Shown: positions 20,196 through 37,215 of the stretch, piece after piece
How positions within the stretch are numbered: position 1 is the stretch's first letter
How the letters are laid out: each line of letters opens with the position of its first letter
Assembly (NCBI GenBank): GCA_045862955.1
Contig: BTVI01000024.1
Location: 1 to 48,313 of the forward strand
DNA: 48,313 nt
Direction of reading: 5' to 3'
Source of the DNA: Fimbriimonadales bacterium
GTDB lineage: Bacteria; Armatimonadota; Fimbriimonadia; Fimbriimonadales; JABRVX01
Notes under the pieces: generated by a model
Seen by the model: only the letters and a program-made list of their open reading frames with translations
What the model was told of the DNA's origin: nothing
The model's database searches: none
Made by a program: the position numbers and the translations under genes

Positions 20196-20281
20196 GGGCG
20201 AGTGGCGGAATTGGTAGACGCCCTGGATTTAGGTTCCAGTGTCCACGAGACGTAGGGGTTCGAGTCCCCTCTCGCCCACCA
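20196..20281 (+). tRNA. tRNA-Leu (anticodon TAG)
   Basis: GGGCGAG/CTCGCCC acceptor stem, anticodon arm CTGGA-TTTAGGT-TCCAG, long variable arm, GGTTCGAGTCC, encoded CCA. Confidence 0.97.
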
Positions 20282-20323
20282 ACGCCAACTAAAGAGTGCC
20301 CGATACGGCACCGCGTGCTATGA

Positions 20324-23300
20324 CTACCAGTCTCTGAGTACCATTTCGAGGTAGCTATCCACTGGCCCCCTTTGTAGCACTGAGTGCGCGAACTGGTTCC
20401 TATAGCTGCGAAGGCAACCGTAGCAGGACGTCATCTCGTCGCATCCGCAGGCTCCGCTAACCCTCGACTTCGCGGATTCCAAACAGGCCTTTAGGATGGT
20501 CGGGTCCTCGAGTCGAGTGACTAGCCCTGCACCGCCTGGCACGTTATCGTATATGACAATGGTCGGCGTGACTTGCTGGCTCCGCGGGTCGATCGTCGTA
20601 CTTAGGTCCGTATCAGGGACCTCAAGAACTTCAGCAGCGCCATGCAAGATAGCGTAGGCCAGTGAAAGGGCGAAACCCACACGGTCCGACGCTTCAGACG
20701 ATCCCTTAGAGAAGAGCAAACGGACCACGTCGGTAGTGAACTCGTGGCCGAGAGACACAGGGTCCAGCATTCCGTGGCACTCGCGGCCAAAGGGGCTCCG
20801 ATGAGACCTCGTCATGGTCAAGAACCCCGCGCCACAATCGCGGCACACCCAGAAACCTTGACCCTTACGACCCTCACACAAGACAACCATCGTTCCCGGT
20901 GTCGCTGGGGTGACCGTCACGTGCCCTTTCCCCGGTGGCATTTCAACGGAGCCCGGTTCAGGCCCGACAGGACCGGCGAAGAAAGGCCGGGAGCTGAACA
21001 CTCGCGGCCGACTCGCGCTTGGCACCTTAGGCTGTTCACGCGGCGCGATGAAGCCGAACCTCGGGATCAAATACGTGAACGTGCGAAGTTCGCAGCCACA
21101 AGGGCTGGCAGGCTCGCTGTCGCCGTCCTTCCACTGGCAGAACGCACCATGCTTGAAGCATCGGTAATAGTGCCTTCGTTCCCACTCTCGCTCGGCCACG
21201 CGTCTGAGGCCTGCCGAAGTCCATTCCAACTTATTGGCGACCAAGCGGCTGCCAGGTGCGAATTCCGAGATGGCCAAGGAGAGGTCCCTCGTGAGGCCTA
21301 CACCATGCCCGTCGCGAGCGGTCGGCTGTAAGTCAAGCTCAACGACGTCCACAGGGAATCCGTACTTGGGAATAACCGCCTTCCGCGAGAGGAATGAGAG
21401 CACGTCTTCAGATGCTATGGTGTTTGCACGACGCTTTGCCCATTCTGCAGTGCGGTAGTCCCTGTCTCTTGTCGCAGCTTGCTCGACATTGAGGACCTGG
21501 CGGTAGTCACTCGAGACCTCCAACTCAGATTGTCGGAGCCTTCCCTCTCTCGTTATCCGGTCGATCCAACTGCCATCAGAGAGCCCTAGTTCCCTACGCA
21601 TCTCCGCAGGGACAACTTGCTCAAGTCGCTGCTCGATCTGCGCTCGGCAACTCCTGAGAAACGACCGGAGGTCGGTCGAGAATTGCGGTGCACTAAGGTC
21701 GCCGAACATCTCGCTCACTGAGCGGAAGCGCTCTGGAAACGCCCGGAAGAATGCCGAGGCGGCAACAGCCACCAGGTGGCGCAAGACAATTCGCTCGTTC
21801 CGTATTGCGAGAGCAGGCGGGCGAACCATGCCTGACAGTATCTGCTTCGGCTCGGCGAAGTGATACAGATCGTGCGGACTTCGGCGGCAGTATGTAATTG
21901 CGAAGCCAGGATTGCCCGGTCGCCGCCCTGCACGGCCCACGCGCTGTGCGTAGTTGAACGTTTCAGGCGGTACGTTTCGCAGGAATATCGTGTCCAAATC
22001 GCCGAGATCTACGCCAAGCTCGAATGTGGTTGAGCAACTGAGCACGTGGATTTGGCCCGACCGGAACTCACGCTGGAACTTGCGAGCTTGCTCATGGTCC
22101 AGCTGTGCCGTGTGCTCCTCGACCCTAAGAGGCCCTGGCAGGCTTGCTGAGTAGAGGGTTCTGTAGTGGTTTGGCTCAAGGTCTCGCCTGAGTTTGGGCC
22201 GCGGAAAACCGGGGCACTTGTTTCTCTTGCACACACCGAGACCGGGCTCTGACTGCAGGCGGCTGCAGACATCGCACTCGTAGATCACGTCTTCGGCTCC
22301 GACGGGGCTGATCCTCCACCAATCAGGGTTGAGCTTCCGAGCCTGACCATCTGCAACTAGTAGCCGCTGGTCCTCCGAAGGGGCACCACCGTCCCAAGTC
22401 CCAAGCGCCTGCCAAACACTTCGCAGAGCATATTGCGCATGGCAGGTGGCCTCCTCGTCTGAGAATCGCTTGCTGCGCAGGTATCGTCTCAAGTAGTCGA
22501 CCCACCGTCCGCGCCCCCTGCTGCCTCCGTCCCAGCTTTGGACGTTGCTCTCTCCCCGCGGATCGCCCAATCGCACAGACTTGGGACCGCCCGACAGCCC
22601 GAGGTCCTCCCACATGAGGGGCACGCCTCGGTCCGTTCGAAGGTCGACAGCTCGAACAACTCTCAGCATATCCAGGAGCACGCACACCACGGACCACGCG
22701 GCGTTCGCGTCCAGGTTCCAGGGCTCGTGCTGGAATACGAGTTCTCTCTCCATCCAGGGGGGCCGTTTTGGATGCCAACGAACGAGGCCAACACCCTCTA
22801 GGCATATGCTCTGCTGTTCCGAGAGGAACTCCGCATACATCCGCCTCCACACATCGGAGAGCACCTCGATCTCACCAGCAGAAGGGCTCAGGACCTTGTT
22901 CTCTTGGAGCACCTCCCGGAAGATCAGCAGTAGGTCGCGTAGGGAGGAACCGGCAACGGACGTCGCTTGAGCACGCAGGACCGCCCTCAGAAGTAGATTA
23001 CGGTTCAGAACCTCCTTGTACGTGTCGTCCAGGTACCAGGCAAAAAACGCTGCTTCCTGACGTCCGTCGGCGAAGGCAAGCACCTTCCGGCGTTGTTCAG
23101 GTAGGTTCTGGTGAAGGGCCGTTGCGATCACAGCATGGGGACCGTAGGCACCGTACAGGACTTCGCGAACCGGATCTCGCCCGGTGAACTCACAGGCACC
23201 GCACTTCGCAATCCTGTCCGACCTGCCCTCATCCTCCGGACTCGGTTCAGCTACCAGGTGGATCGCAGCGTCATGGCAGCAGGAAAGCGGTGACTGATCG

Positions 23301-24973
23301 ATGTGGCCGCACTTGCCGCACAGCCACCATCGGTCTCTGCCACCGCTAAGCTCCTCGAGGCCGTCTCCATCAGTGTTTGGGATCGGCCTTAGAAAAGTGA
23401 TGCCCGACAAGGGATGCGATGGATCACGTTCGGGCTCGCGCAGCCGGCCGCTCCGCAGCGGGTTAGGGGCCAACAAGTAGTGCTGTCCACACTCCCTGCA
23501 CAGTGCAACTTCGAACGCAACGCGCTCGCCTTGAACCGACTTGCGGTCTAGGTAAACCCGCTTCTCCGGCCAATACGATACGAACGCGCCCTCAAGTGCC
23601 TTTAGAAATACGTGGTAACGGAAGGTGACGAGCGGCGAATTGCTGTTCGGGTCGTTCACCAGCGACAGAAGCCGGATCAACTTGACGAGAGCGTCGATGC
23701 GTCTCTCTGTAGGGCAGTCGTCGAAAACTGCATCTGCCACAGACTGGAGTGTTGCCGGCCCCCCTATGAGCGCTTGACGTAAGCGGCCAACGCGTCCGTC
23801 AGCCAACAGGATCCTAGCAATGAGGCGGCTGCGATCTTCGGTGTCCACAACCTTGGCACCTATGCTCGAGGCAAGTGCCGTTAGGTCCAACCCGTCGTGG
23901 GAGCCACCTTCGAGTGTCGCGAGCATGTGACCATAGCAGTCGGACTCAAGCGAGCTAGCTCCCCCAGTCGCCGGTGTCTCGGTGTCACCAAGGATGACGT
24001 CGCCCTCCTCGAATACCTCGTCGAACAACTTGCTCGCGAAGCCCGCGACCTCGCCCGAGTCGGCAGGACCTCCTGACAGGGTAGCACTGGTAGCAATGCA
24101 CCGGAGCCCGCCACGGTTTCCTCCCTCGCGGAGGCGCTGCTTCAAGCGCCGGATCAGCATTGCCATCTCAATCCCCCTCGCGCCTCTGTATTGGTGGGCC
24201 TCGTCAAGGACCAGGAACTTCCAAGTGCGAGCCCTGCCGTTATCGAACAGGGGACTGTCATCGGGCCGCATCAGGAGGTACTCGAGCATGGAGAAGTTGG
24301 TGAGCAAGATGTGCGGCGGCGACTTTCGCATAGCTGACCGAAAAACCATCTCGCTGTTCAAACAATTCCGGAGGTGGTCAGATGCATTCCGTCTTGTGTC
24401 ACTCTCGTCTTCGGGTGTTTCGCCAATGTACTGCCCGAATTTGAACCTGAACGACGATCCGCTGGCTTCCAGCTTGGCAGCAATCTCGCCCAGTCGTTCG
24501 CGCTGATCGTGCGCGAGGGCGTTCATTGGGTACAGAATTAGTGCTCTGACTCCTGGAGCTAGCTCACCGCGCAGATGCTCGGCGTACAAGTGAAGCAGTA
24601 TCGGTATGAGGAAAGCTTCGGTCTTGCCACTACCGGTTCCGGTTGCGACGATCACGTTGCGCCCGGCCGCAACCGCTCGGACTGCAGCCTCCTGATGCGA
24701 GTACAGTGGCCTATCTCCCCACACAGCGTCCAGCAGGCCCTCATCGACTGGCAGTGCGAAAACCTCAGGAATGAGACTGCGAAGCGTAAGAGTGCGCCTG
24801 AAGTTTGGGATAGCTTCTACGTAGGGGCCCTTCAGCAGCGCGTCTCTTCCCAACTCCTCGGCAAACGACCGACGGAACTCCGGATCGGCGAAGCGAAACG
24901 TGGTGGCCAGATATCGCCTATACGTCTCTGCAACATGTTGCGCTATCTTGACTGGGTCAACTGAGTGGGGCAT
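20324..24973 (-). CDS. Large SF2 DEAD/DEAH helicase with Zn-binding inserts and C-terminal DUF1998 (DruE-like)
   Basis: TGTGSGKTE, YPMNALA, DEAHQY, ATSAT, STTFELGVDLG, QRVGRAGRR, YDNVPGGAG, CGC...SCYGCL. Confidence 0.92.
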   Translation of the reverse strand: MPHSVDPVKIAQHVAETYRRYLATTFRFADPEFRRSFAEELGRDALLKGPYVEAIPNFRRTLTLRSLIPEVFALPVDEGLLDAVWGDRPLYSHQEAAVRAVAAGRNVIVATGTGSGKTEAFLIPILLHLYAEHLRGELAPGVRALILYPMNALAHDQRERLGEIAAKLEASGSSFRFKFGQYIGETPEDESDTRRNASDHLRNCLNSEMVFRSAMRKSPPHILLTNFSMLEYLLMRPDDSPLFDNGRARTWKFLVLDEAHQYRGARGIEMAMLIRRLKQRLREGGNRGGLRCIATSATLSGGPADSGEVAGFASKLFDEVFEEGDVILGDTETPATGGASSLESDCYGHMLATLEGGSHDGLDLTALASSIGAKVVDTEDRSRLIARILLADGRVGRLRQALIGGPATLQSVADAVFDDCPTERRIDALVKLIRLLSLVNDPNSNSPLVTFRYHVFLKALEGAFVSYWPEKRVYLDRKSVQGERVAFEVALCRECGQHYLLAPNPLRSGRLREPERDPSHPLSGITFLRPIPNTDGDGLEELSGGRDRWWLCGKCGHIDQSPLSCCHDAAIHLVAEPSPEDEGRSDRIAKCGACEFTGRDPVREVLYGAYGPHAVIATALHQNLPEQRRKVLAFADGRQEAAFFAWYLDDTYKEVLNRNLLLRAVLRAQATSVAGSSLRDLLLIFREVLQENKVLSPSAGEIEVLSDVWRRMYAEFLSEQQSICLEGVGLVRWHPKRPPWMERELVFQHEPWNLDANAAWSVVCVLLDMLRVVRAVDLRTDRGVPLMWEDLGLSGGPKSVRLGDPRGESNVQSWDGGSRGRGRWVDYLRRYLRSKRFSDEEATCHAQYALRSVWQALGTWDGGAPSEDQRLLVADGQARKLNPDWWRISPVGAEDVIYECDVCSRLQSEPGLGVCKRNKCPGFPRPKLRRDLEPNHYRTLYSASLPGPLRVEEHTAQLDHEQARKFQREFRSGQIHVLSCSTTFELGVDLGDLDTIFLRNVPPETFNYAQRVGRAGRRPGNPGFAITYCRRSPHDLYHFAEPKQILSGMVRPPALAIRNERIVLRHLVAVAASAFFRAFPERFRSVSEMFGDLSAPQFSTDLRSFLRSCRAQIEQRLEQVVPAEMRRELGLSDGSWIDRITREGRLRQSELEVSSDYRQVLNVEQAATRDRDYRTAEWAKRRANTIASEDVLSFLSRKAVIPKYGFPVDVVELDLQPTARDGHGVGLTRDLSLAISEFAPGSRLVANKLEWTSAGLRRVAEREWERRHYYRCFKHGAFCQWKDGDSEPASPCGCELRTFTYLIPRFGFIAPREQPKVPSASRPRVFSSRPFFAGPVGPEPGSVEMPPGKGHVTVTPATPGTMVVLCEGRKGQGFWVCRDCGAGFLTMTRSHRSPFGRECHGMLDPVSLGHEFTTDVVRLLFSKGSSEASDRVGFALSLAYAILHGAAEVLEVPDTDLSTTIDPRSQQVTPTIVIYDNVPGGAGLVTRLEDPTILKACLESAKSRVSGACGCDEMTSCYGCLRSYRNQFAHSVLQRGPVDSYLEMVLRDW

Positions 24974-24976
24974 GCT

Positions 24977-27175
24977 TCATCGAAGCTCCATAAGGTCACG
25001 ACAATGTCGGTGACGCAGGTGAGCGACGAACTCAATAGGTTTCGGATTCTCGAGGCTCTGACCGCACAGTACGCAGACGTACAGCAGAGGCACAGTCCGG
25101 CTGAAATTCTGTATTACGCTACTACGTATCTCGTCAACGTCCTTAACGATGCGAAAGCTCTCTTCTTTGTCCTGGTGCTTCTCCTGGAGATGATGTGTCA
25201 TCCTCGAAGTCATACTATCGAGAGGGTCCTGGGCGAAGTAGAGGTCGCAGTGATTGCATCTGTATATCGTTCTCGGCAATGACGGGATCCTCTTCCGCAC
25301 TTCATCGTACTCCTGCAGCTTCCGAAAAAGCTCGTCAACGTGGCATTCCTGCACATGCTGCCAGAATCCATTCTCGTCGTCAGCACTGAAGTCGTCGCAT
25401 CTTCTGCAGCAAGCCACCACCGACAGTACGCCGACGGAAACGCAGCATTTCCTCCGTGCTTCCATCAACCCGACTAGTAGCGTTTTAACCATCGGTCCAT
25501 CGATAATGGTGGGATCAAACATTTCCCGAAGTGGAGCCGAAACGACGCGTTTCCCCGCACTTGTCTGGTATCGGCGCTCTGGCAGGTCGCCTAGGGACAC
25601 TCGCACATCCCTGCACTCAGTCGCCAACGGAAGCCGTACCCACAGCGCTTGTGGAGAAGTTGCTTGGTACCAATCTAAGGGCGTGTTCACCTGTTGATCC
25701 GTCCAGGCTTGTGGTATTATGCCTTCTCGCCCGAATTGCCACCACAGCCTGTCGAGCCCAATCCGCACAACTACGTTTCCCCCGGCGTCGAAGACACGCC
25801 ACTCTGTTATGTCCAGGTCCGGGGCAGGCGGAATGCGGAATGAAGTCTCGTTTGGCCGTTGTTCTACTAGCTCGGCACGTTGCTCCTGTGGCATGATCGT
25901 CACATCTGGGTGATGGGAAAAAGTAACCACCACCGGAACGTAACCGGTGGGTCCAGGCGCCCTCGCGTCACCGTCGACACGTATGTTGGTGAGGCCTTTC
26001 GCAAACCGGAAGGCCCAGCTGTCCAATAGGTCACTGTGAGCGTCATAGAAGCGAAGGAAGTACCATCCTGTCCCTGGAACGTCATCTGATAATGCCAACT
26101 CGTTCGCATCCGGATCGGGTTGTAGTCTCTTACGCCATCGATGACTCCCTGATCCTTCTTCTCCGAGCACCACGCAGCCGATGTGACTCCATGCGCTCTG
26201 AGAGCCCACGATCTTCGGCGCTTCGCCACCGAATAACGGCCCATATTCGGAGGCGGCGTCATCCAACCTCACACCCTCCAGCCTTAGTCCTAACTCACGG
26301 ACTCGCAAAAGCACTGGCGGTCCCGAATGCCTCCGAAAGCCTATCTGGCCGTTCCGTAAGAGATCGAAGTGATGTGCGGTATAGCCAGGGACATGGACAG
26401 GCTCGACAGCCGCTGGCGGACTGCCTGAAGAGTTGATATCACGTTGCCAGGAGTCCGGGACAATAGCAAGCACCCGGCCAGTTGAGGGTCGGATTACACG
26501 CCTGCCCACGCTAAGATCTCCCGCGAGCCGGAACAGCAACAGACAATCGGACCCGAGTGGGATGTTGTACTGTGAGTCCGCGCAGACGACCGGACTCGAC
26601 AGCGACCGCAGGCGTACCAAGCGATTGTTCCCTGGGTCGGGCTCAAGTGACTTCCCGTCTTGGGAGGGGTCGAGGCCCGTGGCGTCCATCTCTGGAGGCA
26701 TCTCGAGACCGACCAGCCAAGCGCGGTCCCGGCGGAGACAGACTAGTTCCGGACGCGCAATACGATGGCTCTTGTCAAGGCTGGGGTGTGTGGTACCACG
26801 TGGCCTGCCGCCGCGTCTTTCCGGCGCACGTCTCACACGATGCTCTTCGCGTGCCGCGCCATGCTTGCCAGTTGGAATGAGGATGACCCCCTCAAATGCT
26901 TCATCGACGCTGTCCAGAGGTTCAGGCGCCGTCACGCTTCTGGCTTGCTGCAGCTCCATATCGTGGGAGACTATCAGGGGGTCTCTATCGCCGTCGTCCG
27001 AGACCTCTTCACCTAGGCGTAAGTCGACAGCTGGCAGGGAGCCACGATCCTCATCTGCGCTACTTCTGCTCGCCGTAGTGAGCGACCGCCTGCCGACTAC
27101 TTTCGCCAGCAACACACCTGCCAGCGCCCCGACGCTGACAGAAACAAGCAGTCTGGCAAACAGCTTAGCTTCCAT
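24977..27175 (-). CDS. Hypothetical protein: N-terminal TM anchor, beta-rich middle, three C-terminal C2H2-type zinc fingers
   Basis: 732-aa ORF ending 3 bp before the helicase start; CRRC..HVQECH, CNHC..HLQEKH, CVLC..HLRHRH. Confidence 0.8.
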   Translation of the reverse strand: MEAKLFARLLVSVSVGALAGVLLAKVVGRRSLTTASRSSADEDRGSLPAVDLRLGEEVSDDGDRDPLIVSHDMELQQARSVTAPEPLDSVDEAFEGVILIPTGKHGAAREEHRVRRAPERRGGRPRGTTHPSLDKSHRIARPELVCLRRDRAWLVGLEMPPEMDATGLDPSQDGKSLEPDPGNNRLVRLRSLSSPVVCADSQYNIPLGSDCLLLFRLAGDLSVGRRVIRPSTGRVLAIVPDSWQRDINSSGSPPAAVEPVHVPGYTAHHFDLLRNGQIGFRRHSGPPVLLRVRELGLRLEGVRLDDAASEYGPLFGGEAPKIVGSQSAWSHIGCVVLGEEGSGSHRWRKRLQPDPDANELALSDDVPGTGWYFLRFYDAHSDLLDSWAFRFAKGLTNIRVDGDARAPGPTGYVPVVVTFSHHPDVTIMPQEQRAELVEQRPNETSFRIPPAPDLDITEWRVFDAGGNVVVRIGLDRLWWQFGREGIIPQAWTDQQVNTPLDWYQATSPQALWVRLPLATECRDVRVSLGDLPERRYQTSAGKRVVSAPLREMFDPTIIDGPMVKTLLVGLMEARRKCCVSVGVLSVVACCRRCDDFSADDENGFWQHVQECHVDELFRKLQEYDEVRKRIPSLPRTIYRCNHCDLYFAQDPLDSMTSRMTHHLQEKHQDKEESFRIVKDVDEIRSSVIQNFSRTVPLLYVCVLCGQSLENPKPIEFVAHLRHRHCRDLMELR

Positions 27176-27269
27176 GGATACTTACGCAGCAGCCCGAAGC
27201 CTCCTCCGCGATACCGTGCTATCCTCCAGTACCGACTGCTCAGACGCTACCGACTAAGTTAACACAAGC

Positions 27270-27278
27270 ATTATACCA
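27270..27278 (-). promoter_or_regulatory. Extended -10 element of the helicase operon
   Basis: TGGTATAAT about 95 bp upstream of the ATG at 27175. Confidence 0.55.
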
Positions 27279-27325
27279 CGGAGCCTCACGTTCGGCATTC
27301 AGATGAGGGGGTTAGCATAGTTGCC

Positions 27326-27991
27326 TCAGAACTGCACGCCAGCGCTGGCGCCGAGATGCCTGCCCTTGACCAAGAGCAAGCTGAGGTTCCAGTCTTCCGC
27401 CTTATACGACAAGAGCCAATGGGTGTTGCGCCCGTCGTGCTGCAGCATCGCGTCCCACTGAGGGCGTATAGTCCAGTTCAGGCCGAAGGGAACCAGCGGC
27501 GTATCCTCCCACTCCGACCAGGAGAGCGAGGTATAAGGAGCGAGCTTGGTGCCGGGGATGCTCTTTGCCGCAGTCAAGTAGTAGCTCCGTGTCCCCTCCG
27601 GCGAGAAGATGCGGTCACTCGATGTGCCCAGACTCAGCATGGGCCTCTCGGCGTCCTCGAGCAGCAGCGTCCAGTTCGCCACGGGCAGGACCTCGCCCGC
27701 CGCAGGGTTCACCTCGATACCAACAAGCAGTCTGTCGGTCAAGCCATACGCCGCGTTCAACCGCCAGCGTGGTCGAGCCTCGCGGACGTCCACGTACCGG
27801 AGAGTCAGCTGCACCTGTCCTTGCACGATCCTCGACCTGAGGAATTGGCCTTCGCCCGGTCACCCGGTTCAGGTCGGCACGGCGGTTGGTCTCGCGGGCA
27901 CCTCGTCCTGAGCGACGCTGCCGACAACGGCCACACTGAACAGCACGAGAGCAGCCACCGCTCGTCTGCCGATGAGCGGACAGGTTCTCAT
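27326..27991 (-). CDS. Candidate secreted/outer-membrane selenoprotein with UxxU (U41-T-G-U44)
   Basis: Signal peptide in frame with the 166-aa ORF across two TGA codons (27871-27869, 27862-27860); SECIS-like hairpin downstream; amphipathic beta strands ending in GVQF. Confidence 0.75.
27829..27843 (-). promoter_or_regulatory. Putative bacterial SECIS hairpin
   Basis: UCCUC-AGGUC-GAGGA; loop begins 21 nt after the second UGA and 30 nt after the first. Confidence 0.6.
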
Positions 27992-28061
27992 CCACCTGTT
28001 CAGCGGACATCCCAGAGACATAGTGCGGCATGATACCACCTCGCTGACCTCTTCTCTTCGC

Positions 28062-28198
28062 GCCTGTTGAAAGCGGCCCTATGCCCCGGCTCCTGTCCCC
28101 CGTTGGCAGCGCCGAGGGCATGAGGTGAAGCGAAGGACCGCGCCGGGGCACGAGTTGCAGCGCCCTCGTTGGTGCTGTGATGCGCTTTTTCAAAAGGC
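28062..28198. mobile_element. Possible MITE-like element
   Basis: Imperfect terminal IR GCCTGTTGAAA / TTTCAAAAGGC and internal IR TGCCCCGGC / GCCGGGGCA. Confidence 0.35.
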
Positions 28199-28258
28199 CC
28201 CTGAGCAAGATGCGCCTGCTGTAATCTGATTTCGGGAAACTTAAGAAGAGAGACAGGG

Positions 28259-28970: not shown

Positions 28971-29214
28971 CCTCACGCTGGACCGGTTGGCGCCCGGCGA
29001 GTCGGCCCGTGTGGTATCGCTCGCAAGCGAAGGGCCAGAGAGGCGGCGCCTATTGGATCTCGGCTTCGTTCCTGGAGCGCAGATCAGGGCGAGCCTACGC
29101 AGCCCGCTCGGCGACCCGACCGCATACGAGGTGCGAGGTGCTCTCATCGCCCTCCGCCGGGAGCAGGCGGCGAGAATCACCGTCGAACCGCTGGAGGTGA
29201 CTGCCGATGCATGA
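28960..29214 (+). CDS. feoA: Ferrous iron transport protein A
   Basis: RRLLDLGFVPG, SPLGDP, IALRREQA. Confidence 0.93.
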   Translation: MADNLTLDRLAPGESARVVSLASEGPERRRLLDLGFVPGAQIRASLRSPLGDPTAYEVRGALIALRREQAARITVEPLEVTADA

Positions 29215-30016
29215 AGCCGCGACCTGCGGCGCGTGTCGGGCGTGCGAACCACTCGACCTACTTCGTTTCGGTCTCGATACCGTTGCCTACGACCACGTAA
29301 TCGCGCTCGCCGGCAATCCGAACACGGGCAAGAGCACGCTCTTCAACGCGCTGACCGGCCTTCGGCAGCACGTGGGCAACTGGCCGGGCAAGACGGTCGT
29401 GCGAGCCGAGGGCGCGTATCGCTATCGGGGAGCAAAGTATAAGGTCGTGGACCTGCCGGGCACCTATTCGCTATTGTCGAACAGCGTGGATGAGGAGGTG
29501 GCCCGCGACTTCATCCTTTTCGGCAGGCCGAATGTCACCGTGGTAGTGACCGACGCCACGTGCCTGGAACGCAATCTGAACCTGGTCCTGCAGGTGCTCG
29601 AGATCACGGACCGAGCGGTAGTCGCACTAAATCTGGTGGACGAGGCCGAACGGCAGGGCATTCGTGTGGATGTCTCTGTGCTCTCCGAGGAGCTCGGAGT
29701 GCCAGTAGTCCCGACGGCGGCGCGATACCGTCGCGGTCTCCCTGAGCTCTTGCAGGCGACACACGAGGTTGCAACTGGCGTGGCTCGGCTCTCGCCGAAG
29801 CGCCTGCACTACACCGACGATCGCCTGGAGGCGGCAATCGCGGAAGTCGAGCAAGAGGTCCTCCGACTTTTTCCCGGACTGCCGAATGCGAGATGGGTGG
29901 CACTGCGCCTTCTCGAAGGCGACGAAAGCGTGCTACAGGAAGTCCGAAACGGCACGCTGGGCCGCCTCACTCATTCCACAGCACCCCAGAACCGGACGGA
30001 ACTGCGAGTACTGTGA
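29207..30016 (+). CDS. feoB: FeoB N-terminal GTPase module (split FeoB)
   Basis: GNPNTGKST, VGNWPGKTV, DLPGTYS, NLVD. Confidence 0.9.
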   Translation: MHEAATCGACRACEPLDLLRFGLDTVAYDHVIALAGNPNTGKSTLFNALTGLRQHVGNWPGKTVVRAEGAYRYRGAKYKVVDLPGTYSLLSNSVDEEVARDFILFGRPNVTVVVTDATCLERNLNLVLQVLEITDRAVVALNLVDEAERQGIRVDVSVLSEELGVPVVPTAARYRRGLPELLQATHEVATGVARLSPKRLHYTDDRLEAAIAEVEQEVLRLFPGLPNARWVALRLLEGDESVLQEVRNGTLGRLTHSTAPQNRTELRVL

Positions 30017-31428
30017 GCACTGCCGAACACGAACTGCTGTTGGTGCGAGCGCGCGAAGCCCGCGAGCGGCTGGGCGACGGACTACACGACCGTGTCACCG
30101 AGTCGTTGTACTCCGAGGCACAGCGGATCGCCGCCCGAGTGGTCTCCAGTGCCGGCAAGCCCGATTTGCTCAGTCGTCGGCTGGACAAGCTCCTGACGAG
30201 CCGCCTGACCGGGTTTCCGATGATGTTCCTGCTATTCGTAGGCGTGTTCTGGATGACCATCGCGGGGTCGAACATCCCCTCATCGCTCCTCGGCAGTCTC
30301 CTCACGGACTCGCTGTATCACCTGCTGCATTCGGGGGCGGACCGAATCGGTGCACCCTGGTGGCTCAGCGGCCTCCTCATAGACGGTGTGTACTTGGCGA
30401 TCGCTTGGGTTTTCAGCGTGATGCTGCCACCGATGGCCATCTTCTTTCCGCTGTTCACGCTGCTGGAGGACTTCGGCTACCTGCCCCGCGTTGCGTTCAA
30501 CCTGGACAGGCTGTTCAAGGGTGTCGGAGCGCACGGCAAGCAGTCGCTGACGATGATGATGGGCTATGGTTGCAACGCGGCAGGCGTCGTCTCGACTCGC
30601 ATCATAGACAGCCCCAGAGAGCGCCTCATCGCCATCATCACCAACAACTTTTCGATCTGCAACGGCCGTTGGCCTCTGCTGATCCTGATGGGCACGATCT
30701 TTTTGGGTGCGGCCGCGCCACCGTCGCTCGCGTCGCTCATTGCAGCGGGGAGTGTGGTGGGGGTCTCACTACTGGGCGTGGCCTTTGCCATGGGAGTGTC
30801 GCTGTTCCTGTCTCGCACCTGGCTGAAGGGGGAAGCGTCGGCGTTCAGCCTCGAGCTTCCGCCTTACCGTCCGCCCCGCCTCTTACAGACCCTGTACACC
30901 TCTCTCATAGACCGCACGCTCATCGTCCTAAAGCGGGCGATGATCATGGCAGCACCTGCAGGTGCCGTGATCTGGCTGATCGGCAACGTCCATGTCGGGA
31001 CCGACAGCATTGCCGCCCACATGGCACGCGGCCTAGATCCCCTCGGGCTGTCCGTCGGTCTGAACGGCGTGATCCTGCTGGCCTATATTGTTGCGATTCC
31101 TGCCAACGAGATCGTCATTCCCACCGTGATGATGCTGACGCTGACACTGGCGGGCTCGTCGCTCGGCTCGGCTGGCGTGATGTCGGAGTTCGGCGAGGCG
31201 CAGACCAGGGAGATCCTGACGGGCCTAGGCGGGTGGACGGTCCTGACGGGCCTTAACCTGATGCTATTCAGCTTGCTCCACAACCCCTGCAGCACGACAC
31301 TGCTGACGATATGGAGAGAGACGGGTAGCCTGAAGTGGACTGCGGTCTCGGCGCTGCTCCCGGTCGCGCTCGGCTTCGCTGTGTGCTTCCTCACCGCATC
31401 GGTGGCGCGGTTGTTGGGCTGGGCCTAA
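30013..31428 (+). CDS. feoB: FeoB membrane (Gate) module (split FeoB)
   Basis: LEDFGYLPRVAF, GYGCNA, ELPPYR, PANE, HNPC; GTG start overlaps the upstream TGA (GTGA). Confidence 0.88.
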   Translation: MSTAEHELLLVRAREARERLGDGLHDRVTESLYSEAQRIAARVVSSAGKPDLLSRRLDKLLTSRLTGFPMMFLLFVGVFWMTIAGSNIPSSLLGSLLTDSLYHLLHSGADRIGAPWWLSGLLIDGVYLAIAWVFSVMLPPMAIFFPLFTLLEDFGYLPRVAFNLDRLFKGVGAHGKQSLTMMMGYGCNAAGVVSTRIIDSPRERLIAIITNNFSICNGRWPLLILMGTIFLGAAAPPSLASLIAAGSVVGVSLLGVAFAMGVSLFLSRTWLKGEASAFSLELPPYRPPRLLQTLYTSLIDRTLIVLKRAMIMAAPAGAVIWLIGNVHVGTDSIAAHMARGLDPLGLSVGLNGVILLAYIVAIPANEIVIPTVMMLTLTLAGSSLGSAGVMSEFGEAQTREILTGLGGWTVLTGLNLMLFSLLHNPCSTTLLTIWRETGSLKWTAVSALLPVALGFAVCFLTASVARLLGWA

Positions 31429-31519: not shown

Positions 31520-31969
31520 CTATTCGCCCCCTCCCGGGCCGTCGCACAGGATACCCTTGGATCCGACCAGCGTTCCCCACCTGTCGTACAGCAGGTTTCC
31601 GCTGATCGGGTGGAATGCCGCGATGGAGAAGAAATCCGGACCCCAGAAGTTGTCCTCCATTGCGAAGAGGACCAAGCGCGGCGTGCCGTTGACGTAGCCG
31701 TGGCCGCCGATCAACACGCGCTGACCGTCGCACTGGAACAGGTCGAACCGGTTCATGTAAATGCGAACGGCCGGAGCCGCAGCCTCAAGGTACGCGAACT
31801 GCCCGTAGATACCGGCGTCCGTCGCCGCGACCCAGAAGTCCACGGCTGTAACATTACCTCGCGTGTTCACTCCGATGTTCCTGTCAGCCCACGCGATGCC
31901 AGTAGTGGCCTGTGCGTAGGCGGAAATCGCGAACGCCAGCACGGCGATTCCCAGAATGACCTTTCTCAT
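31520..31969 (-). CDS. Small secreted protein, array member 1
   Basis: AAGGAGG RBS, signal peptide; FWVA, GIYG, GYVNGTPR, AFHPIS, LLYDR, LCD. Confidence 0.85.
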   Translation of the reverse strand: MRKVILGIAVLAFAISAYAQATTGIAWADRNIGVNTRGNVTAVDFWVAATDAGIYGQFAYLEAAAPAVRIYMNRFDLFQCDGQRVLIGGHGYVNGTPRLVLFAMEDNFWGPDFFSIAAFHPISGNLLYDRWGTLVGSKGILCDGPGGGE

Positions 31970-32045
31970 CTCCAAACCCTCCTTCGTGTCAATCGCAAAA
32001 TGCGGGCTCGCCAGTGGGATACCCGCAATGTAACGCGCTATCATT

Positions 32046-32148
32046 CTACCACAGCTAAAAAGAATACGGGCCGGGCAAATTGCCCGGCCGCAGATATTCT
32101 GTAACCTTTGACAGCCTGCGCGAACCTACACGCTAGTTGTCGGGCCCG
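32046..32148. repeat. About 100-bp intergenic repeat, copy 1 (terminator-like hairpin plus extended -10)
   Basis: Near-identical to 32678-32780; GGCCGGGCAAATTGCCCGGCC hairpin, then TTCTTTTT and TGGTAGAAT on the minus strand. Confidence 0.85.
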
Positions 32149-32597
32149 TTGGGCAGGTCGCATAGGACAGAGACGCCGCCCCTCGTGAACACTCCCCAGC
32201 GGTCGTAGAGTAGCGTGCCGCTAATCGGGTGGAACGCGGCGATGGCAAATAGGTCCGGGTACCAGACGCCGTCCTGCGCTTGGACTAGTATGACCCGCGG
32301 CGTTCCGTTCAAGTACCCTTGTCCTGCAAAGGCAACTAACATGCCTTCGCAGGAGAACGCCTCGATGCGGTTCATGAAGATCTCCACGTCTGGCTTTGGG
32401 CTCCTCTGCCACTTCTCCGCATAAGCGAACGTGCCGTAGATGCCTGCCTCCGTGGAGGCGACCCAGAACTTCGTGATAGCGTCAGTGTCCCGGGTAGTCC
32501 TGAGCCTGCCTTCGCCGTACGCAATGCCGATCGAGTTCTGTGCAAGAGCAGCTCCCGCAAGCGCCAGGGCAGCGAGGCCGATCAGAAGCTTGTTCAT
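32133..32597 (-). CDS. Small secreted protein, array member 2
   Basis: AAGGAGG RBS, signal peptide, same motifs as member 1. Confidence 0.88.
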   Translation of the reverse strand: MNKLLIGLAALALAGAALAQNSIGIAYGEGRLRTTRDTDAITKFWVASTEAGIYGTFAYAEKWQRSPKPDVEIFMNRIEAFSCEGMLVAFAGQGYLNGTPRVILVQAQDGVWYPDLFAIAAFHPISGTLLYDRWGVFTRGGVSVLCDLPNGPDN

Positions 32598-32677
32598 CTT
32601 TGCAACCCCTCCTTTAGGGTAATAGAAACTGTGAAACCTTCTTCACAGCCGGGGGTGAAATCCCATCTCCTGTCATT

Positions 32678-32780
32678 TTACCACAGCTAATAAGAATACG
32701 GGCCGGGCAATTTGCCCGGCCTCGAATATTCTGTAACCTTTGACAGCGCGCGCGAACCTACACGCTAGTTGTCGGGCCCG
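32678..32780. repeat. About 100-bp intergenic repeat, copy 2
   Basis: Near-identical to 32046-32148. Confidence 0.85.
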
Positions 32781-33229
32781 CTGGGCAGGTCGCAGAGAAC
32801 CGAAACGCCGCCCTGCGTGAACTGGGCATACCGATCGTAAAGCAAAGTCATGCTGATCGGGTGGAAAGCTCCTACCCAGAACAGATCGGGGTACCACACG
32901 CCGTCCAGAGCCTGAACGATGATGACGCGGGGAGTGCTGTTGACGTACCCCTCGCCGTAGAAGGCAACGCCGAGGTCCTCGCAGGAGAACCCGTGGAACC
33001 GGTTGATCCGGATCTCGACATTGTCGGATCGGCCGCCCCGCTGCCTGTCTTCGTACCAGAACTTGCCGTAGACACCGGCTGGCGTCGAGGCGACCCAAAA
33101 GTCGGTCCTCACTGTGGTGCCACGCCCGGTGATCATGAAACCGGATCCGTAGGCGATCCCCTGGGAGTTCTGCGCGAAGGCAGCTACGCCGATCGTGAGT
33201 GCCAAGCAGCCCACTAGAAACTTAGTCAT
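32765..33229 (-). CDS. Small secreted protein, array member 3
   Basis: AAGGAGG RBS before MTKFLVGCL, same motifs. Confidence 0.88.
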   Translation of the reverse strand: MTKFLVGCLALTIGVAAFAQNSQGIAYGSGFMITGRGTTVRTDFWVASTPAGVYGKFWYEDRQRGGRSDNVEIRINRFHGFSCEDLGVAFYGEGYVNSTPRVIIVQALDGVWYPDLFWVGAFHPISMTLLYDRYAQFTQGGVSVLCDLPSGPDN

Positions 33230-33302
33230 ATTCCCTCCTTCAAGTAGAGCAGTGACGATACTCCCCCGCAGACGAGCGAGCACATATTTCACCTAGCTAA
33301 GT

Positions 33303-33331
33303 ATTGTACCATAGGTACCCCTTCTAGCCAA
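33303..33331 (-). promoter_or_regulatory. Sigma70-like promoter for array member 3
   Basis: TTGGCT, 17 bp, TACAAT with an extended TG. Confidence 0.55.
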
Positions 33332-33439
33332 GCCGATTCTTCACTTCTCGCCCCGCCGAAGCGGATACAGGTAGCTTTGCGATCCTTGAACCCGCCAGGT
33401 CGGTCCTGTTCTTGCCGATGAGCGGTTGTCCGCCCGCGC

Positions 33440-34511: not shown

Positions 34512-35837
34512 GTGAGACTACTCGCTATTGCTTGCGCTCTCGGCGTTGTCGCCGCCTACGCTGCACCCGAGGACGATATCCTCGCCGGAATCTCGACGAC
34601 CCGCATGATCGACCACATCAAGCACCTGAGCGGCGCGACATCCAACATCAAGAGCCGCTACAGCCCGGACTCCGACACCGTCATCGCGCAGAACTGGCTG
34701 GCTGCTCAGTTCCAGGCACTCGGCTACACCACCATAGTCCAAGACTGGGGCAAATGGAACGGTTACAACTGCGCCGACAACGTGATCGCGCGCAAGGTGG
34801 GAACGAAGTATCCCGGTGAGTACTATGTCATCGGCGGCCACTACGACTCCACCTCGCAGAGTCCTTGGAGTAACGCTCCAGGGGCCGATGATAACGCATC
34901 GGGCACGGTTACCGTACTGGAGGCCGCTATCCTACTGAAGGATTACCCGAGCGACTACTCCATCGAGTTCATCGCCTTCTGCGGTGAGGAGCAGGGCCTG
35001 TTAGGTAGCACCTACTACTGCAACAATCCCGCAGGCAGATTCTGGAAGGGTGCGATCATACTCGACATGACCGGCTACGAGACCACTCCTGGCACGCCAA
35101 TGTACGTCGGAGCGACGACCAACTCCACGTTCGCCAACTGGTTGAGAGATGTCGGCGCAGAAGTGAACCCGACTCGGACGATCTCGAGGTTCACCTATGC
35201 TTCGGGAGCGAGCGACAACTACCCGTTCTATCAGAAGAACGTTCCCGAAGCACTGATCATCGAGGGCACGCCATCTATGATCTGGGGTGGATCGAACCCC
35301 TACTACCACTCCACGGGTGACACATGGGACAAGATCACTCCCAGCTTCATGGAAGTGGCGGCACGGATGGGGATCGCGGGCTTGATCCGCAAGGCCGGCA
35401 TCTACAACGGTGACGCCGCCGTGCTGATGACCGAGTACTCCGGTAACCGCGCGAACGTAACCGTCGAAGTTCAACGTCGAGCTCCGGGCAGTACGGTGCC
35501 TCTGGCCACCTACTACGTGCCACTCGACTCCGCAGGGGTGTTCCGCATTCCGGACGCCGTTCCCGCAGGCACGTGGGACTTCGCCGTCAAGGCGCCGGGT
35601 TGGCTGAGGGACGTCAAGGCCTCGGTCTCCATCCCGAACGCGGCGGGCATCAGCTTTACGCTGATTCCCGGTGACGCGAATGGTACCAACTCGGTGGACG
35701 TGAGCGACTTGAACGCGATTCTCACCGTCTTCGGGGATGCGGGCACACCGCACACCGACATCGATGGCAGCGGTGCGGTAGACCTAGCAGATCTCACGCT
35801 CGTCCTCAGCCACTTCGGCGAGGTGGGGGACGAGTAA
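34512..35837 (+). CDS. Secreted M28 aminopeptidase with C-terminal dockerin-like domain
   Basis: HYDS, GADDNASG, GEEQG, SDN, NPYYH; GDANGTNSVDVSDL and DIDGSGAVD. Confidence 0.9.
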   Translation: MRLLAIACALGVVAAYAAPEDDILAGISTTRMIDHIKHLSGATSNIKSRYSPDSDTVIAQNWLAAQFQALGYTTIVQDWGKWNGYNCADNVIARKVGTKYPGEYYVIGGHYDSTSQSPWSNAPGADDNASGTVTVLEAAILLKDYPSDYSIEFIAFCGEEQGLLGSTYYCNNPAGRFWKGAIILDMTGYETTPGTPMYVGATTNSTFANWLRDVGAEVNPTRTISRFTYASGASDNYPFYQKNVPEALIIEGTPSMIWGGSNPYYHSTGDTWDKITPSFMEVAARMGIAGLIRKAGIYNGDAAVLMTEYSGNRANVTVEVQRRAPGSTVPLATYYVPLDSAGVFRIPDAVPAGTWDFAVKAPGWLRDVKASVSIPNAAGISFTLIPGDANGTNSVDVSDLNAILTVFGDAGTPHTDIDGSGAVDLADLTLVLSHFGEVGDE

Positions 35838-35901
35838 GCACCCTTCGAAATCGCACTCCGGCCGAGATGCCGGAGTGCCTGCCTGGGAAAGGGCGTCCGT
35901 C

Positions 35902-37215
35902 ATGAGAACGCTGATAGCTTTTCTGCTCGTTCTATCGCTCCGAGCCATCCATGCCGACCCGCTGACAGACATCGGAGGAAGCGTGTCCGCGACGCGACTG
36001 ATGGACACCGTGAAGTACCTGAGTGGCGCGACATCTTCCATCGCCACGCGTTACTCGCCTACGGCAGGCTCCGTTGCTGCTCAGAACTGGCTGAAGGGTC
36101 AGTTCGAAGCCCTCGGGTATCCCACCGTGCTGCAGGATTGGGGCACCTATCAGGGCTACCCGTGCTCGGACAACGTCATCGCCCGCAAACTGGGTGTCCA
36201 ACATCCGGACATCATCTACGTGATCTGCGCGCACTACGACTCCGTGTCCAACAATCCGTGGAACCTCGCACCGGGGGCAGACGATAATGCGAGTGGCACT
36301 TCCGCGGTTCTGGAAGCTGCCTATCTGCTGCGAGATTACCCGACCGACTACACCATAGAGTTCGTGGCGTTCTCTGGCGAAGAGCAAGGGCTGTACGGTA
36401 GTAAGTACTATGTGCAGAACCCCGGCGGCAGACAGTGGGCCGGGGCGATCGACCTGGACATGATAGGGTATGCGCCAGTGGCCAACCCTTCACTTTGGGT
36501 GGTTTCGTGCAAGAGCCCATCCCCCCTCGCCGATCTGGTCAAGACCATAAGCCTTTCCCTCAATCCTGGCACTCCCGTTGTTCGATACACCTATCCTTAC
36601 GGTGTTAGTGATAACTACCCCTTCTACCAGCGCAACGTCCCGGAGTGTCTGCTGATCGAGCACGACTTCGGCGACTCGAACCCCTACTACCACAAGACCA
36701 CCGACACCTGGGACAAGCTGACGGCCGAGTACCTGCGTGTGTGTGCTACGGCAGGGATCGCCTCGGTCGCTTACGCCGCCGGAGTGTCGAATGGCTACGC
36801 AGCGGTGCTGATGCCGGAGTACGCGGGCTCGCGGGCCGGGCTCGGCGTCGAGTTGCAGTTGCGAGAAGCGGGCGGCGGCCCGCTGGTGGCGACCTATGCG
36901 GCGACGCTCGATGCGGCGGGGGTGTTTCGACTGCCGGACGAGCTGCCGCGCGGCACATGGGACCTGGCGGTGAAGGCGCCAGGTTGGCTCCGCCGCGCTA
37001 ACACCAACATCTCCATCCCGAACCTCGCGGGCCTGAGCTTCACCTTGACCCCCGGTGACGTCAACGGCGACAACATGGTGGACATTACGGACATCGCGGT
37101 TCTCCTGGCCCAGTTCGGCCTCTCGAACCCCGGAGCGGACATTGACGGTAGCGGCGCTGTCGGCATCGAGGACCTGAACCTGGTCCTCCTCCACTTCGGC
37201 GAGGCGGGCGACTAG
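35902..37215 (+). CDS. Secreted M28 aminopeptidase with dockerin-like domain, tandem paralog
   Basis: Same motifs; colinear with 34512-35837. Confidence 0.9.
   Translation: MRTLIAFLLVLSLRAIHADPLTDIGGSVSATRLMDTVKYLSGATSSIATRYSPTAGSVAAQNWLKGQFEALGYPTVLQDWGTYQGYPCSDNVIARKLGVQHPDIIYVICAHYDSVSNNPWNLAPGADDNASGTSAVLEAAYLLRDYPTDYTIEFVAFSGEEQGLYGSKYYVQNPGGRQWAGAIDLDMIGYAPVANPSLWVVSCKSPSPLADLVKTISLSLNPGTPVVRYTYPYGVSDNYPFYQRNVPECLLIEHDFGDSNPYYHKTTDTWDKLTAEYLRVCATAGIASVAYAAGVSNGYAAVLMPEYAGSRAGLGVELQLREAGGGPLVATYAATLDAAGVFRLPDELPRGTWDLAVKAPGWLRRANTNISIPNLAGLSFTLTPGDVNGDNMVDITDIAVLLAQFGLSNPGADIDGSGAVGIEDLNLVLLHFGEAGD

Follow-up and report, generated by a model that had tools for sequence, protein, structure and literature searches.

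Druantia type III systems combine the helicase DruE with a second protein, DruH, whose role is an open question: in the portions of the 2026 papers that are available, it appears variously as an exonuclease, a single-stranded DNA (ssDNA) binder, a protein sensor and a scaffold. Canonical DruH is a protein of ~1,100 amino acids (aa) in which six Ig-like domains stand between helical N- and C-domains; the accessible sections of these reports describe the N-domain as an exonuclease and the C-domain as touching DruE and making an ssDNA/ATP pocket (10.64898/2026.05.13.724313; 10.64898/2026.05.12.722862; 10.64898/2026.05.12.724681). Here we describe a two-gene module for a DruE-like helicase and a partner protein on contig BTVI01000024.1 of a Fimbriimonadales bacterium (GCA_045862955.1); the window analysed is this whole contig, 48,313 nucleotides of a 3.36-Mb genome in which each of the two genes is single-copy. 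The helicase branch has already been catalogued, and one member has been tested as anti-phage; the partner family, with its predicted membrane anchor and swappable tip, is the part for which we found no published description.

Closest to the window pair is Druantia III-B, which in the available text likewise consists of two genes, partner first, with a YprA-family DruE that carries an MZB domain and no C-terminal nuclease (PMC12458937; MSMEG_1253/1254, PMC13316683). The M. smegmatis III-B partner has 1,132 aa, whereas the window partner is shorter (732 aa), begins with a predicted anchor and tether where a helical N-terminal domain would stand, and bears an exchangeable tip. Druantia III-A (E. 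coli and P. aeruginosa DruH-DruE; 9tud, 9tu7) resembles the pair in DruE homology and in having a partner of Ig-like domains. However, its DruE has two PLD domains where the window helicase has none, and its DruH sets helical N- and C-domains around six Ig domains; no membrane anchor has been reported for it, and its sequence shows no detectable similarity to the window partner. ARMADA, DISARM, Dpd and BRIGADE, as well as TALON, share a superfamily 2 (SF2) helicase with MZB/DUF1998, but these systems bring in methyltransferases, additional helicases, modification genes or nucleases, none of which the window module contains. SNIPE, mentioned in the introduction of a Druantia paper as a membrane-associated defence acting on entering DNA (10.64898/2026.05.13.724758), offers a functional analogy to the tethering proposed below; it degrades incoming DNA itself, unlike our proposal, and we claim no homology.

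The helicase and its place among DruE enzymes

Both open reading frames (ORFs) lie on the minus strand, the partner (732 aa) upstream of the helicase (1549 aa) with 3 bp between them, just as the preliminary description had reported in calling them a tightly coupled operon. Its identification of a DEAH+DUF1998 helicase is likewise borne out: Pfam assigned DEAD, Helicase_C and MZB (DUF1998) above cut-off, and Walker A, DEAH, motifs III-VI and the MZB/DUF1998 domain are intact. The protein runs from RecA1 through zinc-binding and other insertions to RecA2 and MZB without a C-terminal nuclease, and since 28 residues follow the MZB cysteines, it carries neither a PLD nor a Vsr nuclease. The PADLOC models that matched best were DruE1 (E 1e-158) and DruE3 (E 1e-142), and the nearest solved relative is E. 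coli DruE (9tu7, E 7e-70).

In a 51-row tree (all trees were built with FastTree only), the window helicase fell in a 27-row clade of compact enzymes with a support of 100; 27-47 residues follow MZB in 26 of the 27 members, those in which the motif was found. Sister to this clade are two helicases with different partners, followed by the C. butyricum III-B enzyme, with E. coli III-A outside. The III-B branch most often lacks a nuclease, according to the available part of Bell et al. (PMC12458937), and its Table S1, as accessible, lists as III-B three of the six first contigs compared (L007, L012 and L017), while two further related-locus contigs were not found there. The helicases on the three listed contigs are 51-55% identical to the window helicase and belong to the same 27-row clade. 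On sequence grounds, then, the helicase belongs to the published nuclease-less Druantia type III-B branch.

In M. smegmatis the two-gene III-B system MSMEG_1253/1254 blocks phage DNA circularisation and replication (PMC13316683, available text), and in the accessible account from E. coli a DruE trimmed to its MZB domain still defends, the PLD being dispensable (10.64898/2026.05.13.724758). Because close relatives stand on three contigs listed as III-B and III-B is proven anti-phage in M. smegmatis, the pair is not a new system. Of the two options first proposed, a minimal Druantia type III-like variant therefore agrees with the census listing, the clade and the missing nuclease, whereas a new system is too strong a term for the helicase. 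A complex prediction for helicase aa 625-945 with the partner core scored 0.00 and was not used either way.

The partner protein and its exchangeable tip

The partner had been proposed to be a membrane-anchored triple-C2H2 protein, and we found both a hydrophobic N-terminus (Kyte-Doolittle 2.28 at residues 9-27), where an anchor is predicted, and three fingers of C2H2 pattern. Structure models showed an N-terminal helix, disorder over aa 26-139 and then a confident fold (predicted local distance difference test score 91.5 for aa 112-732), so that the modelled chain consists of anchor, tether, beta domains and zinc fingers, without either DruH helical domain. Across the family, 85 of the 135 homologs with a usable N-terminus have a hydrophobic stretch there, followed by net positive charge in 75 of these 85, which under the positive-inside rule predicts an N-out, C-in orientation. 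The Ig/FN3-like sandwiches matched at VIA Z 7-8, with a root-mean-square deviation of ~3 over ~80 residues, which shows a common fold only.

The family has 853 relatives among 50%-identity representatives, and no homologs were found in plasmids or in viral contigs. Against the window partner, no PADLOC model matched, no NCBIfam model rose above cut-off, and Pfam gave only zf-BED, below cut-off; no catalytic domain was found with Pfam, PADLOC, NCBIfam or fold searches. Foldseek on PDB and viral models returned generic Ig arrays only (TM-scores <=0.25), and the ESM Atlas gave no usable partner match and, for the relative P0002, sub-0.9 zinc-finger leads only. A word search brought up no homologs above 1,718 aa, but it is a weak test, as another search did recover P0032 and P0056, both of ~2,200 aa.

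The partner core also occurs in other contexts. P0032 and P0056 carry it behind a complete SMC/AAA ATPase, and at an archaeal locus (L005:344-2974) the pair has an SMC-like gene directly upstream. A 1,452-aa open frame (L103:3-4358) runs from a DUF1156 domain into the core, as a fusion or a read-through of two genes, and the 1,001-aa P0066 joins the core to mid-helicase, probably through an internal deletion across the gene boundary.

In 80 zinc-finger-rich rows, the six zinc-finger cysteines are conserved at 94-100%, H612, H662 and H724 at 95-100%, and H667 at 15%. Other family members end differently. A set of 154 tails comprised 92 zinc-finger, 23 uS9-like, 19 helical, 7 cysteine-rich, 3 other helical and 3 eL13-like tails plus 7 singletons, counts that are biased because the set holds the best matches of a zinc-finger query. 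All 22 uS9-type proteins scanned passed the Pfam Ribosomal_S9 cut-off, a profile of 8 locus tails matched eL13 (E 1e-8), and the 19-member helical tip had no match in Pfam or PDB sequences. Among 45 partner ORFs of fetched loci, 20 had zinc-finger, 9 eL13, 8 uS9 and 7 helical tips, with 1 broken, and a helicase was found downstream of all four types.

On a tree of 142 cores, six tip labels required 30 changes, compared with a possible minimum of 5 and a shuffled mean of 51.9; well-supported branches force at least 5 changes for the uS9 tip, and one short-branched 8-row clade contains three tip types. These changes indicate that the tip has been swapped repeatedly, and, as judged from sequence, at least six cassettes can replace one another there, the zinc fingers being one of them. 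Three (zinc fingers, uS9 and eL13) have folds known to bind nucleic acid. To our knowledge, eL13 is an archaeal/eukaryotic protein that is absent from bacteria.

Comparison of the partner with DruH by HHpred-style and PADLOC searches, as the preliminary description had suggested, showed that it does not score as canonical DruH, although the check is weak. The DruH profiles (PADLOC DruH3, NCBIfam NF038336) matched neither the partner nor 30 homologs, while the positive control matched; hhalign against the E. coli DruH sequence gave 0.5%, and 9tud was absent from the family-profile matches. Fold searches of the Ig chain returned generic Ig/FN3 (Z 7-8) without listing DruH, from libraries that may not contain 9tud. 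In the partner's own genome NF038336 had no match, but it had none in controls either. The DruH models also missed the C. butyricum partner and two sister-clade III-B-type partners; thus they do not span the branch, and their negative result for the window partner carries little weight.

A link to other III-B partners is provided by P0124, in which the window partner core (E 1e-172) stands behind a helical N-domain that matches sister-clade partners (E 1e-18 and 7e-10). A profile of this N-domain matched clostridial III-B partners (hhalign probability 52%, E 1.4e-4) and was not significant against E. coli DruH (0.55%). The partner core itself aligned collinearly with the L106 partner over 246 columns with a score of 32.9 (probability 10.6%), compared with 24.6 for the best of 30 other long proteins, and a two-row version reached 28.1, with 22.6 as the highest score among 40 shuffles. 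The core alignment with the L069 partner alone was not significant, and a search of the core against the clostridial III-B partner profile found nothing. Since P0124 keeps the helical N-domain of other III-B partners, the window family is probably a remodelled III-B partner that arose by replacement of both ends; descent from E. coli DruH is not claimed. The clostridial III-B partners (L051:1783-4992, P0156-P0275; 374 relatives of ~1,070 aa without a DruH model match, starting with a repeated GIIxGIxxDG domain) are in their own right another undescribed partner family.

No description of a membrane-anchored partner, tip exchange or ribosomal-protein tips was found in the searchable text of the literature; figures, bioRxiv supplements and most subscription journals lay outside this search, and the operon drawings of Bell et al. 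might show one. The accessible text of papers on BREX, programmed inversions and CoCoNuTs contained nothing on the window partner.

Linkage, occurrence and genomic surroundings

We fetched 36 genome loci, of which 4 end too soon downstream and some are near-duplicates. The helicase lies downstream of the partner on the same strand in 31 of the 32 loci with room, a few being frameshifted. Among 301 genomes of the phylum, an unbiased sample in which helicases were counted at >=48% identity, the helicase and the partner were present in the same five, adjacent to each other and in five different families, so the homologs do co-occur as a pair. Restriction-modification, toxin-antitoxin or Thoeris genes were detected by Pfam within 5 kb in 13/36 loci and likely genes of these kinds in 3 more, from a scan of 148 of the 173 neighbouring ORFs. 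No recurrent third gene was found across related loci. At one locus (L013:279-12100), the pair is immediately preceded by an ARMADA-like methylase and helicase, which places two YprA systems in tandem.

The module is variable in its occurrence. Its DNA was matched in none of 30 close relatives, and in the sister species the tRNA-Leu lies 411 bp from the right flank with the module absent, which is the empty tRNA site that the preliminary description had suggested looking for in relatives. In sequencing run X6, 20599 is joined to 28078 on a contig of depth 19.6 that retains only the final 91 helicase codons, while the module itself is covered by pieces of depth 2-7; one sample thus holds strains with and without the module, the short form being a deletion scar. 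The right break of this deletion lies inside a genome-wide repeat: window 28056-28200 is one copy of a 70-130 bp repeat that occurs at dozens of places in the genome, often clustered. RNA sequencing runs contained little of the window, and run X16 is probably DNA. Absence from the sister species, presence in 5/301 genomes and deletion in the X6 strain show that the pair is not syntenic core genome.

The helicase stop lies 42 bp from tRNA-Leu(TAG), in agreement with the ~40 bp given initially. The idea that this tRNA served as an integration site found no support: there was no attachment (att) site in the form of a duplicated tRNA end >8 bp and no integrase, and a tRNA is present in 3/36 related loci and hence is not a family rule. 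The GC-rich hairpin between tRNA and stop is not above chance, since 4 such sites were found in comparison with 5.3 expected. An own promoter-like sequence had also been reported; the site is there, TGGTATAAT at 27278-27270 being the only TGNTATAAT of the window (0.15 expected), but it is weak on its own because 14/100 shuffles of the window contain one. No full -35/-10 pair was found for the operon, and promoter-like sites upstream of related partners, when compared, were not conserved. The proportion of G and C at third codon positions is 0.67 and 0.61 for the pair, lower than for eight flanking genes (0.74-0.83). Consistent with the first account, which had listed no methylase, nuclease or DruA-D/DruM, we found none of these beside the pair in the window, nor DruF/G, a methyltransferase or a second helicase next to it.

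Table 1. Positions of the pair, its domains and adjacent features in the window.
Feature	Positions	Strand	Remark
tRNA-Leu(TAG), left flank	20196..20281	+	kept in sister species
GC-rich hairpin, possible terminator	20295..20312	-	between tRNA and helicase stop
Helicase gene, DruE-like YprA/SF2	20324..24973	-	1549 aa
MZB/DUF1998 zinc domain	20411..20662	-	aa 1438-1521 of helicase; 28 residues after
Segment skipped by co-occurring strain's contig	20600..28077	.	7,478 bp; run X6
Partner gene	24977..27175	-	732 aa
Triple zinc-finger tip, exchangeable cassette	25004..25408	-	aa 590-724
Conserved all-beta core	25418..26758	-	aa 140-586; N-terminal beta region and >=3 Ig/FN3-like sandwiches
Predicted disordered tether	26759..27094	-	about aa 28-139; family motif RGGRPR at aa 121-126
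Predicted single membrane anchor	27095..27163	-	aa 5-27; basic residues next
Extended -10 promoter-like site, TGGTATAAT	27270..27278	-	95 bp before partner start

Several neighbouring genes are of separate interest. A 221-aa ORF at 27326-27991 (minus strand) has a signal-like N-terminus, a C-terminal Phe like that of an outer-membrane barrel, a main part without Pfam match, and a U-x-x-U motif formed by two in-frame TGA codons. Since three relatives (59-62% identity) keep both TGA codons and tRNA-SeC is present in the genome, this ORF is likely a selenoprotein; it was lost along with the module in the X6 strain. feoB, at 29207-31428 (plus strand), is spread over two ORFs that overlap but use different frames, one for the GTPase part and one for the membrane part, either a split gene or a frameshift. 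Tandem paralogs occupy 31520-33399 and 34512-37215, namely small ORFs that lack a Pfam match (~31.5-33.4 kb) and two peptidases of the M28 family. A second short-repeat family, common to the sister species, has several copies at both contig ends (35-800, 1308-1349 and 47971-48163).

Proposed mechanism and competing explanations

We consider it highly probable that the pair has an anti-phage function of some kind. For its mode of action we lean, with some reserve, towards a tethered sensor-loader built from a nuclease-less III-B helicase and a remodelled partner. As modelled, the partner would be anchored in the inner membrane and extend its Ig chain and tip into the cytoplasm. Going by this anatomy only, tethering would put the system where phage DNA enters, and the zinc-finger tip may catch phage nucleic acid near the entry site and so set what is recognised. 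The partner would load the helicase onto the captured nucleic acid. By analogy with characterised type III systems, the helicase would load on exposed single-stranded or forked DNA and move 3' to 5', and unwinding could stall the circularisation and replication of phage DNA with no nuclease in the enzyme itself.

Several observations weigh against the tethered sensor-loader. Because the partner has neither helical domain, the mechanisms reported for DruH (exonuclease, ssDNA/ATP pocket and DruE contact) cannot be carried over to it, and a functional E. coli DruE fusion is cytosolic in the available part of its report (10.64898/2026.05.13.724758). The window partner's own anchor is only moderately hydrophobic, and 50/135 homologs have no hydrophobic N-terminus, some being truncated calls and others having heads of the coiled-coil, SMC-ATPase, Mrr_N or HTH type, so that not every member of the family would be anchored. 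One locus (L064) has a close helicase with an insertion sequence upstream and no partner, another (L036) a partner remnant without a helicase, and the count of defence neighbours in 13/36 loci stands without a genome-wide background. A bolder version, which we put forward only tentatively and think rather unlikely as a whole, is a widespread membrane-tethered Druantia branch whose scaffold repeatedly swaps its tip (zinc fingers, or captured uS9 or eL13), so that a nuclease-free helicase is set off at phage entry by a module that binds RNA or mimics the ribosome.

The same anti-phage pair could instead use its tip as bait, with cassettes that mimic host targets of phage proteins, so that the helicase is released or activated once a phage protein binds. 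The uptake of two unrelated ribosomal proteins at the same position would fit such a role, as would tip exchange among close relatives and the finding that most uS9 copies match positions 1-94 of 121, with the basic tail missing or diverged; in the accessible literature, moreover, a protein-sensor role has been put forward for DruH, and the M. smegmatis system is activated by a phage tail protein. However, the identified tips have nucleic-acid binding in common, and eL13, archaeal/eukaryotic as far as we know and in all placeable matches, would be a poor mimic of a bacterial target. We regard bait as unlikely.

We judge it more doubtful still that the pair works by abortive infection, with the membrane-bound partner as a toxic effector that the helicase restrains until infection. 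The precedent is M. smegmatis DruH, lethal alone and neutralised by DruE in the available text (PMC13316683), and the X6 strain did lose the partner along with most of the helicase. Yet a single helix on a long tether is not a pore architecture, the partner has no catalytic domain that we could find, and the type III systems of E. coli and P. aeruginosa, so far as their reports are accessible, act without cell killing.

A non-defence module for DNA repair or plasmid handling, of the MrfA/YprA kind and moving between genomes, appears improbable. Some YprA helicases are repair enzymes, and many loci, including that of the window, have housekeeping neighbours only, but the helicase groups with Druantia enzymes and not with the genome's other YprA-like match on C2, there is no adjacent MrfB exonuclease, and occurrence is sparse (5/301) and strain-variable. 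That this is ordinary Druantia III, its DruH diverged beyond detection and working as in E. coli, is hardly credible despite the same gene order, the Ig-like chain and the transitive link to other III-B partners, since the partner has 732 aa instead of ~1,100 and neither helical domain, and the helicase has no PLD.

The window branch lacks every catalytic part so far proposed for these systems (the DruE PLD and the DruH helical domains), but both genes of the pair have stayed intact across many phyla. The pair is a natural minimal form in which to ask whether phage can be cleared by unwinding alone, and its exchangeable tip offers a clean swap test of what is sensed. The reuse of ribosomal proteins in a defence protein would, if true, be a new source of sensor domains.

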